Source: Escherichia coli (GTDB taxonomy: Bacteria > Pseudomonadota > Gammaproteobacteria > Enterobacterales > Enterobacteriaceae). Taken from it: a DNA stretch of 64,000 nt. Below the pieces are notes generated by a model. That model was not told the DNA's origin. It ran no database searches and was given only the letters and a program-made list of their open reading frames with translations. A program made the position numbers and the translations under genes. This document shows, piece by piece, positions 2,670 to 61,650 of this stretch (its first letter is position 1; each line of letters starts with the position of its first letter). Location of the stretch: NCBI RefSeq assembly GCF_003018255.1, contig NZ_CP027440.1, one strand, 5' to 3'.

Positions 2670-3389
2670 ATGAACACTATCGTATTTGTGGAAGATGATG
2701 CGGAAGTCGGTTCACTGATTGCCGCGTACCTGGCAAAACATGATATGCAGGTTACCGTGGAACCGCGCGGCGACCGGGCCGAAGAAACTATTCTGCAAGA
2801 AAATCCGGATTTGGTGTTACTCGACATCATGCTACCAGGCAAGGACGGCATGACCATTTGTCGTGATTTACGCGCAAAGTGGTCCGGACCGATTGTTCTT
2901 CTAACCTCTCTCGATAGCGATATGAACCACATCCTGGCACTGGAAATGGGTGCCTGCGACTATATTCTCAAAACGACGCCCCCTGCTGTTTTGTTAGCGC
3001 GTTTACGTTTGCATTTGCGTCAGAATGAGCAAGCCACACTGAGCAAAGGTCTTCAGGAAACGTCTCTGACTCCCTACAAAGCCCTGCATTTCGGCACGTT
3101 GACCATCGATCCTATCAACCGCGTAGTCACCCTGGCTAACACTGAAATCTCGCTCTCGACAGCTGATTTCGAATTATTGTGGGAATTAGCTACCCATGCT
3201 GGGCAAATCATGGACCGCGATGCATTGCTGAAAAATTTACGCGGCGTCAGTTATGACGGACTGGATCGTAGCGTGGACGTGGCTATTTCGCGGTTAAGAA
3301 AAAAACTGCTCGATAACGCCGCAGAACCTTATCGCATTAAAACTGTGCGTAACAAAGGCTATCTTTTTGCGCCTCATGCATGGGAATAA
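2670..3389 (+). CDS. rstA: two-component response regulator RstA (OmpR family), 239 aa from ATG at 2670
   Basis: ORF 2610..3389; receiver domain (VLLDIMLPGKDG) plus winged-helix C-terminus; start MNTIVFVEDD. Confidence 0.9.
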   Translation: MNTIVFVEDDAEVGSLIAAYLAKHDMQVTVEPRGDRAEETILQENPDLVLLDIMLPGKDGMTICRDLRAKWSGPIVLLTSLDSDMNHILALEMGACDYILKTTPPAVLLARLRLHLRQNEQATLSKGLQETSLTPYKALHFGTLTIDPINRVVTLANTEISLSTADFELLWELATHAGQIMDRDALLKNLRGVSYDGLDRSVDVAISRLRKKLLDNAAEPYRIKTVRNKGYLFAPHAWE

Positions 3390-3392
3390 GCG

Positions 3393-4694
3393 ATGAAAAA
3401 ACTGTTTATCCAGTTTTACCTGTTATTGTTTGTCTGCTTCCTTGTGATGTCTCTGCTGGTTGGGCTGGTGTACAAATTTACCGCCGAACGCGCGGGCAAA
3501 CAGTCGCTGGATGATTTGATGAACAGTTCGCTGTATCTGATGCGCAGCGAATTGCGTGAGATCCCCCCACACGATTGGGGTAAGACGCTGAAGGAGATGG
3601 ATTTAAATCTCTCTTTCGATCTGCGAGTCGAGCCACTGAGTAAATACCATCTTGATGATATTTCCATGCACCGGCTGCGTGGCGGCGAAATTGTCGCCCT
3701 GGACGATCAGTACACTTTTTTGCAACGTATCCCGCGCAGCCACTACGTGCTGGCAGTTGGTCCTGTTCCTTATCTTTATTACCTCCATCAGATGCGATTA
3801 CTGGATATCGCCCTGATCGCTTTTATTGCCATTTCCCTCGCCTTTCCGGTGTTTATTTGGATGCGTCCGCACTGGCAGGATATGTTAAAACTGGAAGCAG
3901 CGGCGCAACGATTTGGCGATGGGCATCTCAATGAACGTATCCACTTTGATGAAGGTTCGAGCTTTGAACGACTTGGCGTCGCATTTAACCAGATGGCGGA
4001 CAATATCAACGCCTTGATTGCCAGCAAAAAACAGCTTATTGACGGTATCGCTCACGAACTGCGAACACCGTTAGTGCGCCTGCGTTATCGACTGGAGATG
4101 AGCGATAACCTGAGCGCCGCCGAATCCCAGGCGTTGAATCGCGATATCAGTCAACTTGAAGCTTTAATTGAAGAGCTGCTGACTTATGCCCGACTCGATC
4201 GCCCACAAAATGAGCTTCATCTTAGCGAGCCAGACCTGCCGTTGTGGCTGTCAACGCATCTGGCAGATATTCAGGCAGTAACGCCCGATAAAACGGTACG
4301 GATAAAAACGCTCGCGCAAGGCCATTATGCGGCGTTGGATATGCGCTTAATGGAGCGCGTGCTGGATAATTTGCTCAATAACGCCCTGCGCTACTGTCAC
4401 TCAACGGTTGAAACCAGCCTGCTACTGTCGGGGAATAGAGCGACATTAATTGTTGAGGATGATGGCCCAGGGATTGCCCCAGAAAACCGCGAACATATCT
4501 TTGAACCTTTTGTTCGCCTCGATCCCAGCCGGGATCGCTCAACCGGCGGCTGCGGGCTGGGGCTGGCCATTGTCCACTCTATAGCACTGGCAATGGGCGG
4601 TACGGTTAATTGTGACACCAGCGAACTGGGTGGTGCCCGCTTCTCGTTCAGCTGGCCGTTATGGCATAACATCCCGCAATTTACCTCTGCCTGA
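3393..4694 (+). CDS. rstB: sensor histidine kinase RstB
   Basis: 433 aa; two N-terminal TM segments, H-box (IAHELRTPL), G-box (GLGLAIV); 3 bp after rstA. Confidence 0.9.
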   Translation: MKKLFIQFYLLLFVCFLVMSLLVGLVYKFTAERAGKQSLDDLMNSSLYLMRSELREIPPHDWGKTLKEMDLNLSFDLRVEPLSKYHLDDISMHRLRGGEIVALDDQYTFLQRIPRSHYVLAVGPVPYLYYLHQMRLLDIALIAFIAISLAFPVFIWMRPHWQDMLKLEAAAQRFGDGHLNERIHFDEGSSFERLGVAFNQMADNINALIASKKQLIDGIAHELRTPLVRLRYRLEMSDNLSAAESQALNRDISQLEALIEELLTYARLDRPQNELHLSEPDLPLWLSTHLADIQAVTPDKTVRIKTLAQGHYAALDMRLMERVLDNLLNNALRYCHSTVETSLLLSGNRATLIVEDDGPGIAPENREHIFEPFVRLDPSRDRSTGGCGLGLAIVHSIALAMGGTVNCDTSELGGARFSFSWPLWHNIPQFTSA

Positions 4695-4736: not shown

Positions 4737-7099
<2,363 letters not shown>

Positions 7100-39993: not shown

Positions 39994-40116
39994 TCCTACT
40001 TTCATTATGATTTGCTCATATTTGGTAGAACATGTAACCATGGATTCACATATGCCATATACTTTGACCATGAGGGATGCTTGCGTGGCGTTTCATGGTG
40101 AACAGGAGATTTTTCA

Positions 40117-40584
40117 ATGATTAAACGCGTATTGGTTGTTTCAATGGTAGGTCTGTCTCTTGTCGGTTGTGTTAATAACGACACCCTGTCAGGGGATGTT
40201 TATACCGCTTCTGAAGCGAAACAAGTACAGAATGTCAGCTATGGCACCATCGTTAACGTACGTCCGGTACAGATTCAGGGCGGTGATGATTCCAACGTTA
40301 TCGGCGCAATTGGCGGTGCTGTTCTTGGTGGTTTCCTGGGGAATACTGTTGGTGGCGGAACCGGGCGTTCTCTGGCTACTGCTGCAGGCGCTGTTGCAGG
40401 TGGCGTAGCCGGTCAGGGCGTACAGAGTGCAATGAACAAAACGCAGGGTGTCGAGCTGGAAATTCGTAAAGACGATGGTAATACCATCATGGTGGTACAG
40501 AAACAAGGCAACACTCGTTTCTCTCCGGGCCAACGTGTCGTACTGGCCAGCAATGGCAGTCAGGTGACCGTTTCCCCGCGCTAA
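40117..40584 (+). CDS. slyB: outer membrane lipoprotein SlyB (glycine-zipper)
   Basis: 155 aa; lipobox LVGC; Gly-rich GxxxG repeats. Confidence 0.92.
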   Translation: MIKRVLVVSMVGLSLVGCVNNDTLSGDVYTASEAKQVQNVSYGTIVNVRPVQIQGGDDSNVIGAIGGAVLGGFLGNTVGGGTGRSLATAAGAVAGGVAGQGVQSAMNKTQGVELEIRKDDGNTIMVVQKQGNTRFSPGQRVVLASNGSQVTVSPR

Positions 40585-40592
40585 ATAAGTTT

Positions 40593-40620
40593 GCGTGTGG
40601 TCAGGTTACTGACCACACGC
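40593..40620. terminator. bidirectional terminator hairpin between slyB and slyA
   Basis: GCGTGTGGTCAG-GTTA-CTGACCACACGC perfect 12-bp stem. Confidence 0.6.
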
Positions 40621-40630
40621 CCCCTTCATT

Positions 40631-41071
40631 TCACCCTTTGGCCTGTAACTCAATGATATTATGCTCAAGTTTTGCGATGAGCTTAATCAGTTGTTCCAGT
40701 TCCTCTGCGGAGATGCCATGTAAAATTTCCGCGCGGGTTTTGTTAATAACAGCTTCCATTTCGCTGATCAGCGGCTCTGCCTTTTCCGTCAGTTTAATAC
40801 GTTTAGCCCGACGATCGCTGGCACAAGTTTGACGCGAAATTAACCCTTTTTCTTCCAGTTGGTCCAGAGTACGGACCAGTGATGGCTGCTCGATGCCAAT
40901 CGCTTTTGCCAGTTGAATTTGCGACTGGTCTGGAGGTAACTGATGGATATTGTGTAACGTAACCCAATGGGTTTGTGTTAACTCCAGCGGTTTCAGGCGA
41001 TGGTCTATCAGAGCACGCCATATGCGCACCAACCGTGCCAGATCAGAACCTAGTGGCGATTCCAATTTCAT
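40631..41071 (-). CDS. slyA: MarR-family transcriptional regulator SlyA
   Basis: ATG-initiated ORF of 146 aa; the commonly annotated 144-aa form would start at TTG 41065. Confidence 0.92.
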
Positions 41072-41081
41072 CTCCTTATAA

Positions 41082-41093
41082 TTAGCTTGCTAA
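41082..41093. promoter_or_regulatory. SlyA binding site in the slyA leader
   Basis: Minus-strand TTAGCAAGCTAA, matching the SlyA consensus as I recall it; just upstream of the slyA SD (AAGGAG). Confidence 0.6.
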
Positions 41094-41265
41094 GATATTA
41101 TGCGGCTTTTAGAATAGTGTGCAGCAATTGTATTGCTAAAACAAATGTATTGCTGCATTTGGTTACCGTCAGACATATTTTTCAGAAATTGCGCGTAAAT
41201 TTTTCGCACTTAAAGAATATTTATTAATCTAACGCAATATATTCGGTCGTAAAGGAATCTACTTT

Positions 41266-41502
41266 GTGAAGTTTATGCTCAATGCAACAGGATTGCCCTT
41301 ACAAGATCTGGTGTTCGGTGCGTCCGTCTACTTTCCTCCGTTTTTCAAAGCCTTCGCGTTTGGATTCGTCATCTGGCTTGTCGTACACCGCCTGCTTCGT
41401 GGCTGGATCTACGCCGGTGACATCTGGCATCCCTTGTTAATGGATTTATCGCTGTTTGCGATTTGCGTTTGCCTTTCCCTGGCAATACTGATTGCGTGGT
41501 AA
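41266..41502 (+). CDS. ydhI: small inner membrane protein (DUF1656), GTG start
   Basis: 78 aa, two predicted TM segments; first gene of ydhIJK, divergent from slyA. Confidence 0.8.
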
Positions 41503-41504
41503 CT

Positions 41505-42362
41505 ATGTCAATTAAAACAATTAAGTATTTCTCAACAATCATTGTAGCGGTAGTTGCGGTTCTTGCCGGATGGTGGCTGTGGAATTATTACATGCAATCT
41601 CCGTGGACACGCGACGGGAAAATACGCGCAGAACAGGTTTCTATCACCCCTCAGGTGTCGGGACGTATTGTTGAGCTGAATATAAAAGACAACCAACTGG
41701 TTAACGCGGGGGATCTTCTGCTCACGATCGATAAAACGCCCTTTCAGATCGCCGAGCTGAACGCACAGGCTCAGTTGGCGAAAGCGCAATCTGACCTCGC
41801 AAAAGCCAATAACGAAGCGAATCGTCGTCGTCATCTCTCACAAAATTTTATTTCTGCCGAAGAACTCGATACCGCTAACCTCAATGTTAAAGCGATGCAG
41901 GCCAGTGTTGATGCCGCACAGGCGACGCTGAAACAGGCACAATGGCAACTGGCGCAAACGGAAATTCGCGCCCCGGTGAGTGGATGGGTGACTAACCTCA
42001 CTACCCGCATCGGCGATTACGCTGACACCGGGAAACCGCTGTTTGCCCTTGTCGACAGCCACTCGTTTTACGTCATTGGTTATTTTGAAGAAACCAAGTT
42101 GCGCCATATCCGCGAAGGTGCACCAGCACAAATTACCCTCTATAGTGATAACAAAACGTTACAGGGTCACGTTTCCAGTATCGGTCGGGCGATTTATGAT
42201 CAGAGCGTTGAAAGTGACTCAAACCTTATTCCGGATGTGAAACCTAACGTCCCCTGGGTTCGCCTCGCCCAACGAGTTCCCGTCCGCTTTGCGCTGGATA
42301 AAGTCCCAGGCGATGTCACGCTGGTGTCGGGCACCACCTGTAGTATTGCCGTAGGTCAATAA
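41505..42362 (+). CDS. ydhJ: HlyD-family membrane fusion protein, 285 aa from ATG at 41505
   Basis: ORF 41463..42362; N-terminal TM then coiled-coil periplasmic adaptor. Confidence 0.85.
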
Positions 42363-44374
42363 TGAACGCATCGTCATGGTCCTTGCGCAATTTGCCCTGG
42401 TTCAGGGCCACGCTGGCGCAATGGCGTTATGCGTTACGCAATACCATTGCCATGTGTCTGGCGCTGACGGTTGCCTATTATTTAAATCTGGATGAACCCT
42501 ATTGGGCGATGACCTCGGCTGCCGTGGTTAGCTTTCCCACCGTTGGAGGTGTCATCAGCAAAAGCCTCGGACGCATCGCTGGCAGTTTGCTCGGAGCCAT
42601 TGCGGCACTGCTTCTTGCCGGACATACGCTCAATGAGCCGTGGTTTTTTCTTTTGAGCATGGCGGCGTGGCTTGGCTTTTGTACCTGGGCCTGTGCGCAC
42701 TTCACGAATAATGTCGCGTATGCATTTCAACTGGCGGGCTACACAGCTGCCATCATCGCCTTTCCGATGGTTAATATTACTGAGGCCAGCCAGCTGTGGG
42801 ATATCGCTCAGGCGCGCGTTTGCGAGGTGATTGTCGGTATTTTGTGCGGCGGCATGATGATGATGATCCTGCCGAGCAGTTCCGATGCTACAGCCCTTTT
42901 AACCGCATTGAAAAACATGCACGCCCGATTACTGGAACATGCCAGTTTACTCTGGCAGCCTGAAACAACCGATGCCATTCGTGCAGCACATGAGGGGGTG
43001 ATTGGACAGATACTGACCATGAATTTGCTCCGTATCCAGGCTTTCTGGAGCCACTATCGTTTTCGCCAGCAAAACGCACGCCTTAATGCGCTGCTCCACC
43101 AGCAATTACGTATGACCAGTGTCATCTCCAGCCTGCGACGTATGTTGCTCAACTGGCCCTCACCGCCATGTGCCACACGAGAAATTCTCGAACAGCTGCT
43201 GACGGCGCTCGCCAGTTCGCAAACAGATGTTTACACCGTCGCACGTATTATCGCCCCGCTACGCCCGACCAACGTCGCCGACTATCGGCACGTCGCCTTC
43301 TGGCAGCGACTACGTTATTTTTGCCGCCTTTATCTGCAAAGTAGTCAGGAATTACAACATCTGCAAAGCGGTGTGGATGATCATACCAGACTTCCACGGA
43401 CATCCGGCCTGGCTCGTCATACCGATAACGCCGAAGCTATGTGGAGCGGACTGCGTACATTTTGTACGTTGATGATGATTGGCGCATGGAGTATTGCTTC
43501 GCAATGGGATGCCGGTTCCAATGCATTAACGCTGGCAGCAATTAGCTGCGTACTCTACTCCGCCGTCGCAGCACCGTTTAAGTCGTTGTCACTGCTGATG
43601 CGCACGCTGGTGTTACTTTCGCTATTCAGCTTTGTGGTCAAATTTGGCCTGATGGTCCAGATTAGCGATCTGTGGCAATTTTTACTGTTTCTCTTTCCAC
43701 TGCTGGCGACGATGCAGCTTCTTAAATTGCAGATGCCCAAATTTGCCGCATTGTGGGGGCAACTGATTGTTTTTATGGGTTCGTTTATCGCTGTCACTAA
43801 TCCCCCGGTGTATGATTTTGCTGATTTTCTTAACGATAATCTGGCAAAAATCGTTGGCGTTGCGCTGGCGTGGTTAGCGTTCGCCATTTTGCGTCCAGGG
43901 TCGGATGCTCGTAAAAGCCGTCGTCATATTCGCGCGCTGCGCCGGGATTTTGTCGATCAACTTAGCCGCCATCCAACACTGAGTGAAAGCGAATTTGAAT
44001 CGCTCACTTATCATCACGTCAGTCAGTTGAGTAACAGCCAGGATGCGCTGGCTCGCCGTTGGTTATTACGCTGGGGTGTAGTGCTGCTGAACTGTTCTCA
44101 TGTTGTCTGGCAATTGCGCGACTGGGAATCGCGTTCCGATCCGTTATCGCGAGTACGGGATAACTGTATTTCACTGTTGCGGGGAGTGATGAGTGAGCGT
44201 GGCGTTCAGCAAAAATCACTGGCGGCCACACTTGAAGAATTACAGCGGATTTGCGACAGCCTTGCTCGTCATCATCAACCTGCCGCCCGAGAGCTGGCGG
44301 CAATTGTCTGGCGGCTGTACTGCTCGCTTTCGCAACTTGAGCAAGCACCGCCGCAAGGTACGCTGGCTTCTTAA
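42362..44374 (+). CDS. ydhK: FUSC/AaeB-family putative efflux membrane protein
   Basis: 670 aa with two multi-TM blocks; 1-nt overlap with ydhJ. Confidence 0.85.
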
Positions 44375-44896
44375 TTACTTAATTACACCACAGGCATAGC
44401 GTTCACCGCCACCGCCCAGCGGTTTAGGTTGATCGGACATATTATCGCCGCCAACGTGGACCATCAGTGCTTTGTCTTTGACTTCATCCAGTGATTTCAG
44501 ACGAGGCGCGATGACGGCATCGGTAGCTTTGCCGTCATTATTGACGACCAGTGCAGGCAGATCGCCTAAATGCCCGGCACCTTCTGGCCCTTCATGTTTA
44601 CCGGTATTTTGTGGATCAAGATGCCCGCCTGCGGATTCTGCGGCGCTGGCTTTGCCATCTTTGGTGGCTGGCTGGCAGCTTCCTTTGGCATGAATATGGA
44701 AGCCATGTTCACCGGGAGGTAATGCTTTCAGATCGGGCGAAAACTCCAGACCTTTATCGGTTTCAGTAATGGTGACGCTACCAATTGACTGCCCAACCCC
44801 TTGCGACGTGACGAGGTTCATCTCGACTTTTTCACTGGCAGCTTGTGCGCCGGTCGCAACAACCAGCGCCAGAATGGCCAGACTAAAACGTTTCAT
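44375..44896 (-). CDS. sodC: periplasmic Cu,Zn superoxide dismutase, 173 aa from ATG at 44896
   Basis: ORF 44375..44947; signal peptide; His-rich Cu/Zn ligand motifs (HGFHIHAKG); GGAGG SD before ATG 44896. Confidence 0.92.
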   Translation of the reverse strand: MKRFSLAILALVVATGAQAASEKVEMNLVTSQGVGQSIGSVTITETDKGLEFSPDLKALPPGEHGFHIHAKGSCQPATKDGKASAAESAGGHLDPQNTGKHEGPEGAGHLGDLPALVVNNDGKATDAVIAPRLKSLDEVKDKALMVHVGGDNMSDQPKPLGGGGERYACGVIK

Positions 44897-58021: not shown

Positions 58022-58037
58022 AGGCAAACGTTTAGCT
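58022..58037. promoter_or_regulatory. PurR operator O1 (PUR box) in the purR leader
   Basis: AGGCAAACGTTTAGCT contains the PUR box core GCAAACGTTT, about 45 bp upstream of purR ATG. Confidence 0.6.
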
Positions 58038-58081
58038 TGCGATTTTGCAGGAGCTGAAGTTAGGGTCTGGAGTGAAATGGA

Positions 58082-61360: not shown

Positions 61361-61650
61361 TCTATATCGATATGATTATACTTAGGCTGCTAACAAAATT
61401 TTGTTGTATGATTGAAATTAGCGGCCTATACTAATTTCGAGTTGTTAAAGCTACGATAAATATTATGTTTTTACGGGGACAGGATCGTTCCCGACTCACT
61501 ATGGATGGTCATTTCGGCAAGGGTTCCTCCTTTCCCTCTGTTCTACGTCGGATTATAGACTCGCGGTTTTTTCTGCGAGATTTCTCACAAAGCCCAAAAA
61601 GCGTCTACGCTGTTTTAAGGTTCTGATCACCGACCAGTGATGGAGAAACT

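Follow-up and report, generated by a model that had tools for sequence, protein, structure and literature searches.

The 12-bp box on the minus strand at positions 41082–41093 of the Escherichia coli DNA analyzed here (64,000 nucleotides, hereafter the window) is a known operator of SlyA, located between slyA and ydhIJK, and is already in print. Our main reading, to which we assign a probability of about 0.8, is that this documented operator is common to two overlapping divergent promoters and serves a MarR-type repression of both the regulator gene slyA and the linked pump genes ydhIJK. The site itself, the binding of SlyA, slyA autoregulation, the control of ydhIJK by SlyA and the link to aromatic acids have all been published. 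The additions made here are the invariance of the box in 78 of 80 species, its overlap with the −35 hexamer at the mapped E. coli ydhI promoter and the back-to-back promoter pair, of which the slyA member is predicted. These additions sharpen a testable model and leave the classification of the element unchanged.

The SlyA box and the genes around it

The locus has the order slyB, slyA, ydhI-ydhJ-ydhK, sodC and ydhF, as in MG1655, and was found in 5425 of 5426 complete E. coli genomes with a best match of 99.7% over 4.5 kb. The slyA gene (40631–41065, minus strand; 435 nt in RefSeq) encodes a MarR-family winged-helix regulator of 144 amino acids counted from its TTG codon. The MarR winged helix-turn-helix was recognized by Pfam (PF01047, E = 7e-17, over the cut-off), and the protein matched the solved SlyA structures 3q5f, 3qpt and 3deu from the PDB with E = 3e-80. 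According to Will 2019 (PMC6401476), the SlyA structures, of a protein 92% identical to the one encoded here, include a complex with DNA. The Shine-Dalgarno sequence AAGGAG (41072–41077, minus strand) is invariant across species; it lies 6 nt from the annotated TTG start codon (41065–41063) and directly abuts, with 0 nt between them, an in-frame ATG (41071–41069). The ATG AAA TTG context (41063–41071, minus strand) was invariant in 79/80 species. In Cedecea (locus L046, positions 4990–5003), a 1-nt deletion creates an ATG at the position of the TTG and shifts the upstream ATG into another frame, which supports the TTG at 41065 as the true slyA start. Between the convergent genes slyB and slyA, a 12-bp G+C-rich hairpin (40593–40620), with a run of T after it on the minus strand, is probably a terminator common to both.

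On the other side of the spacer, three genes follow each other on the plus strand. The ydhI gene (41266–41502, GTG start) encodes a 78-aa DUF1656 membrane protein paralogous to AaeX (PF07869, 2e-14), ydhJ (41505–42362) a 285-aa HlyD-type membrane fusion protein paralogous to AaeA (HlyD families, about 1e-17), and ydhK (42362–44374) a 670-aa FUSC-family inner-membrane protein paralogous to AaeB (PF04632, 8e-140). The FUSC family comprises proteins of fusaric acid resistance and aromatic acid export. By their Pfam assignments, the three genes follow the order of AaeXAB-like exporters (small protein, fusion protein, exporter), and ydhIJK is a putative AaeXAB-like aromatic-acid efflux system. The placement of the box given in a preliminary description of this DNA, between the slyA Shine-Dalgarno sequence and the divergent ydhI-ydhJ-ydhK genes, agrees with these coordinates, the Shine-Dalgarno sequence ending at 41077 and the ydhI GTG beginning at 41266.

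Read directly from the window, the minus strand at 41082–41093 is TTAGCAAGCTAA (plus strand TTAGCTTGCTAA), a 5+5 inverted repeat TTAGC/GCTAA with a non-palindromic AA centre. It matches the SlyA consensus at 12/12 positions with the TTA and TAA ends intact, and it fits the pattern TTAN6TAA. The preliminary description had recognized TTAGCAAGCTAA as the SlyA consensus, and this is indeed the consensus that Curran 2017, Lithgow 2007 and McVicker 2011 cite from Stapleton 2002. The sequence is present in a single exact copy in the 64-kb window, where 0.01 copies were expected from dinucleotide-preserving shuffles (1/100 shuffles held a copy). Sites resembling it with up to three mismatches showed no excess over chance (38 observed, 53 expected), and near-consensus 12-mers elsewhere in the window, e.g. 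at 61382–61393, 58032–58043 and 303–314, were within the chance frequency. The TTAN6TAA motif was found in 21 copies in the window, with about 11 expected, two of them in the 200-bp slyA-ydhI spacer. This spacer is AT-rich (31.5% G+C), and two or more TTAN6TAA motifs per 200 bp appeared in about 3% of its composition-matched shuffles.

The perfect match to the consensus is partly circular because the Salmonella slyA promoter region, on which Stapleton 2002 reportedly did the footprinting, holds an identical box (two genomes, diarizonae and arizonae). Footprinting together with limited SELEX gave the consensus (Curran 2017, PMC5797941). Independent support for the operator is provided by the published binding data and by the conservation measured here, not by the consensus match.

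The published binding data refer to the same DNA. Table 3 of Curran 2017 (PMC5797941) lists for PslyA the site TTAGCAAGCTAA, 22 bp upstream of slyA, and a second site, TTAGATTAATAA, 161 bp upstream of slyA, with distances measured between the start codon and the middle of the site. For the box at 41082–41093 and a weaker distal SlyA-like site, TTATTAATCTAA (41221–41232, plus strand), the window gives 22.5 and 161.5 bp between the site centre and the TTG codon (41065), and these matching distances identify both window sites as the pair of Curran 2017. The distal site matches the consensus at 9/12 positions in the ydhI orientation, fits TTAN6TAA and lies about 40 bp upstream of the ydhI GTG; among the 80 species surveyed, it was found only in the four Escherichia representatives. 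A third weak SlyA-like sequence, TTAGCAATACAA (41128–41139, minus strand; 9/12), overlaps the predicted slyA −35 hexamer and was picked up by sequence match alone. In EMSA, SlyA shifts a 200-bp slyA-ydhI fragment, with an apparent Kd of about 50–100 nM over the tested promoters (Curran 2017, PMC5797941), and the EMSA primers map to 41066–41265 of the window. McVicker 2011 used the DNA corresponding to 40999–41171 as a SlyA-positive control, citing Corbett 2007; this fragment contains the TTAGCAATACAA site and the main box as well. Finally, the slyA/ydhI spacer is entered in a genomic SELEX table with the note 'autogeneous regulation'. The binding of a SlyA dimer to DNA carrying TTAGCAAGCTAA has been shown, the published E. 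coli data being at the level of the fragment or the spacer, and the earlier placement of SlyA at the box is borne out by the Curran 2017 entry with its EMSA and by the genomic SELEX entry.

Conservation of the box and its surroundings

A scan with one genome for each species covered more than 25 genera of Enterobacteriaceae and yielded 80 loci. The box was identical in 78/80 species at −28 to −17 from the slyA start codon, and the two exceptions were one base off. Column identity was 99.8% in the box compared with 65% at the third codon positions of slyA in the same species. The flanks reached 99.9% (−16 to −1) and 96% (−60 to −41), and beyond about −95 upstream the spacer diverges between genera, likewise in Will 2019 (PMC6401476). 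Because about 60 bp are near-invariant and promoter, leader and ribosome-binding signals overlap the box, this conservation is not attributable to SlyA binding alone. The divergent slyA-ydhIJK linkage was observed in 77/80 species. In the remaining three (Intestinirhabdus alba, Kosakonia oryziphila and a soil metagenome-assembled genome), ydhIJK was lost or degraded and the box with the promoter block was intact, so that box and block are of use to slyA at least.

Within E. coli, 5405 of 5423 genomes had the 261-bp spacer (41040–41300) at 99% identity or more, as against only 366 complete genomes in which the 4.5-kb locus (40000–44500) reached this level, most showing 95–99%. Among E. coli genomes, this non-coding spacer thus varies markedly less than the genes on either side. 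An exact-sequence look-up of Yersinia RovA (sequence from PDB entry 4aih) gave no match. The conservation survey is an addition of the present work and is in line with Figure 6 of Will 2019.

Promoter anatomy and the reach of the operator

A blind promoter scan of 40560–41400 returned one hit, TTGCTA-17-TAGAAT on the plus strand. The −35 hexamer TTGCTA (41087–41092) lies wholly within the SlyA box and was found in 80/80 species; the −10 hexamer TAGAAT (41110–41115), separated from it by a 17-nt spacer, was found in 68/80. A ydhI transcription start of E. coli K-12 is given in Table S1 of Kim 2012 (PMC3415461) with 12 reads in one data set and a 143-nt 5′ UTR. Its 51-mer maps to 41073–41123 of the window and places the start at 41123 (plus strand), 8 nt past TAGAAT. 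This start fits TTGCTA-17-TAGAAT, and therefore the −35 hexamer of this mapped E. coli promoter lies entirely in the box. A second weak start in Kim 2012 (9 reads), assigned to ydhJ, maps to 41289 (plus strand), 23 nt into the ydhI coding sequence. In the E. coli chicken isolate SC516, an ISApl1 element of the IS30 family (2733–3707 of locus L084) is inserted in the slyA-ydhI spacer at the equivalent of about 41185, so that ydhI is cut off from its mapped promoter and from the SlyA box.

The transcribed part of the spacer was also considered at the RNA level. The 143-nt 5′ UTR of ydhI folded no better than its shuffles (z = +0.89), and an Rfam search gave no family match (best E = 0.087). A 9-bp perfect inverted repeat, TGCAGCAAT / ATTGCTGCA (41120–41128 / 41149–41157, 20 bp between the arms), begins at the mapped ydhI start and contains a 13-nt direct repeat (41125–41137 / 41142–41154). 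A conserved hairpin at 41120–41157 is unlikely because the left arm varies without compensation and the right arm is invariant across genera. With the null folding result, the lack of an Rfam match and a repeat unsupported in other genera, an RNA-level role is not supported.

On the slyA side, the promoter is predicted. The pair TTAGCA (−35; 41134–41139, minus strand) and TATTCT (−10; 41111–41116, minus strand), separated by 17 nt, scores 8/12 in the window, just below the scan threshold. The same scan of Salmonella and Enterobacter loci found the ydhI promoter again and, in the slyA direction, TTG(A/G)(G/C)A-17-TATTCT. TATTCT was present in 68/80 species; at the −35 position other genera have TTGGCA, TTGAGA and similar hexamers, and all 80 species have TT as its first two bases, in most cases followed by G. 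From the 8/12 match, the slyA transcript is predicted to start near 41104, which would give a leader of about 39 nt with the box at about +12 to +23. The −10 hexamers TAGAAT of ydhI and TATTCT of slyA share 5/6 bp on opposite strands, and because of this overlap RNA polymerase could probably sit on only one promoter at a time; the pair is conserved across genera. In E. coli, the box holds the −35 hexamer of the promoter that fits the published ydhI start at 41123, and on the slyA side its relation to a promoter is predicted.

A stretch 3 nt upstream of the box, CATAAT (41097–41102, minus strand), is an alternative slyA −10 hexamer, from which transcription would begin within the box. In 56/80 species this hexamer is a perfect TATAAT; E. 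albertii, E. whittamii and one divergent genome under the name E. coli are among them. The window and K-12 share CATAAT with 10/80 species genomes, and the Citrobacter freundii group has CACAAT. The hexamer was kept only as an alternative because no −35 hexamer accompanies it in any genus. A weaker slyA promoter has been described in E. coli (Will 2019, PMC6401476), and CATAAT in place of TATAAT might be related to it. As for a mapped slyA start, the Cappable-seq and SMRT-Cappable-seq supplements have no entry for the locus, Kim 2012 (PMC3415461) has no slyA row, and Mendoza-Vargas 2009 gives just a slyA 5′RACE primer.

The published regulation of both genes was compared with this anatomy. In Salmonella in vitro transcription, SlyA represses slyA 5.3-fold and ydhI about 19-fold, and salicylate relieves the repression of both (Will 2019, PMC6401476); RNA-seq likewise showed ydhIJK to be SlyA-repressed in Salmonella (Will and Fang 2025, PMC12506092). 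The latter study names 4-hydroxybenzoate and 2,3-dihydroxybenzoate as SlyA ligands, and both of these as well as salicylate and benzoate bind Salmonella SlyA and lower its DNA binding (Will 2019; Will and Fang 2025). In E. coli, ydhIJK expression rose 2.2-fold on SlyA overproduction (Curran 2017, PMC5797941). The autoregulation of slyA is reported to be positive in E. coli (Bartoli 2020; Corbett 2007, as cited), whereas in Salmonella it is negative (Will 2019, PMC6401476). Autoregulation by SlyA and a possible control of ydhIJK, both suggested in the preliminary description, are thus on record, with two refinements: the sign of regulation is species-dependent, and in Salmonella the control of ydhI is attributed to another site matching at 9/12 positions. 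A phenotype with aromatic carboxylic acids, which had been proposed as a check, is on record for Salmonella: in fusaric acid, growth of ydhIJK mutants is delayed and slyA mutants grow better (Will 2019, PMC6401476). The remark that the YdhJK system is poorly defined still applies, as Will and Fang 2025 (PMC12506092) call the physiological function of YdhIJK unknown.

Judged from the anatomy, the box would be common to two overlapping divergent promoters. SlyA bound to it would hinder RNA polymerase at both the slyA and the ydhI promoter, which would amount to classical MarR-type repression of the regulator gene together with the linked pump. Aromatic carboxylates, whose effect on SlyA has been demonstrated in Salmonella, would reduce SlyA binding and in this way derepress the pump. 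An obstruction at both promoters agrees with the in vitro results from Salmonella and also with the finding there that ydhI is the more strongly repressed gene; apart from the ydhI start, the geometry is inferred. Against simple occlusion stand the published in vivo data from E. coli, in which the effect of SlyA on slyA and ydhIJK is positive. Net activation in E. coli could plausibly arise if SlyA counteracts H-NS on the AT-rich spacer or if the two overlapping promoters compete. In this regard, the code 'O' that stands with ydhIJK in Curran 2017 is taken here, as an assumption, to mark H-NS-bound regions.

The most serious competitor of the shared operator is the possibility, which we regard as real though clearly the weaker one, that the box serves slyA autoregulation only and that ydhIJK is controlled through weaker sites nearer to ydhI or through displacement of H-NS. 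The candidates for such sites are 41221–41232 in E. coli and TTGGTAAGCAAA in Salmonella. Will 2019 (PMC6401476) tied a salicylate-sensitive footprint to ydhI, on a 12-mer with a 75% match near the −35 of the Salmonella ydhI start. This 9/12 site is probably TTGGTAAGCAAA at −104 to −93, which was the sole 9/12 site in the Salmonella subspecies examined (diarizonae, arizonae) and is absent from E. coli, so the box may not be the main ydhI operator in Salmonella. The intact box in the three species without ydhIJK and the finding that excess SlyA raises rather than lowers ydhIJK in E. coli point in the same direction. The distal sites, however, are not conserved between genera, yet slyA and ydhIJK are linked in 77/80 species; moreover, the E. 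coli ydhI start at 41123 uses a −35 hexamer within the box, and the ydhI promoter hexamers are kept in nearly all species. E. coli and Salmonella appear to use different ydhI promoters, and a similar remark was made for slyA in Will 2019.

It is far less probable that the 12-mer is conserved on account of overlapping promoter, 5′-leader and translation signals, independently of SlyA, and that its likeness to the consensus is a product of circularity. In favour of such an explanation, conservation in the flanks (99.9% and 96% in the two blocks given above) is as high as in the box, the box contains a −35 hexamer, and the consensus originated from footprinting and limited SELEX. Yet EMSA on two different fragments and genomic SELEX are independent evidence of binding, sites resembling the SlyA consensus are present in the unrelated promoters of fimB (TTAGCATGATAA) and hlyE, and the TTAGC/GCTAA dyad is needed neither for the −35 hexamer nor for the leader. 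The idea of a functionless chance 12-mer can draw on the low G+C content of the spacer and on the 3% of shuffles with at least two TTAN6TAA-type sequences, but it has next to no likelihood: an exact 12-mer was expected 0.01 times per 64 kb, the box keeps a fixed distance from the slyA start and is invariant in 78/80 species, and its binding is published. A chance origin of the box was ruled out on the shuffle expectation and the cross-species conservation.

The shared operator, which we continue to prefer, can be extended to a more speculative proposal that we consider improbable as it stands. Here, a single shared operator would serve two mutually exclusive divergent promoters, the direction of transcription would be set by SlyA occupancy, by H-NS and by competition of RNA polymerase, and changes specific to E. 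coli would explain the differences between species. These changes would be TATAAT to CATAAT, TTGGCA to TTAGCA at the slyA −35 position and the loss of the Salmonella-type distal ydhI promoter, and they would account for positive instead of negative autoregulation as well as for weaker slyA expression. An architecture of mutually exclusive promoters was not found stated in the literature searched; Corbett 2007 and Stapleton 2002 may already cover it.

Comparison with known systems

The MarR-family systems marRAB and emrRAB (MprA/EmrR) have a dimeric regulator on a short palindrome over the promoters of its own gene and a linked efflux operon, and aromatic carboxylates such as salicylate release regulators of this family. 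The slyA-ydhIJK pair differs from them in that its pump is of the FUSC/aromatic-acid-exporter type and not of the MFS or RND type, and the regulator and pump genes are divergent, not co-transcribed. The MarR-type scheme has been stated for SlyA (Will 2019, PMC6401476).

The gene arrangement resembles that of aaeR-aaeXAB, with the same three-gene order and a divergent regulator. The identities are 33% for YdhI/AaeX, 41% for YdhJ/AaeA (E = 5e-68) and 24% for YdhK/AaeB (E = 4e-28). AaeR, however, is a LysR-type activator, whereas SlyA is of the MarR type. The substrates of AaeAB are defined (4-hydroxybenzoate and others; Will and Fang 2025), in contrast to YdhJK, for which only an indirect phenotype, in fusaric acid and from Salmonella, is on record.

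The element is the same as PslyA of E. coli K-12, with the same sequence, 22 bp to the site centre and the same neighbours. The K-12 derivative J53 has the 261-bp spacer with 100% identity, and the 51 bases compared with MG1655 are identical; the window comes from another E. coli strain, and the element shows no difference. The slyA-ydhIJK region of Salmonella is also very similar: the box and its position (diarizonae, arizonae) and the proximal block of about 60 bp are identical, ydhIJK is divergent, and the two SlyA proteins share 92% identity over 142 residues. Just upstream of the box, diarizonae has the hexamer TATAAT, and arizonae and E. coli have CATAAT. Salmonella differs in its negative autoregulation, as opposed to the positive one reported in E. 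coli, and in a ydhI start that seems to lie at a greater distance from slyA and has a 9/12 site not shared by E. coli. Nearly identical proximal DNA is therefore associated with opposite signs of autoregulation in the two species, and the promoter anatomy described here gives a concrete handle on this contrast.
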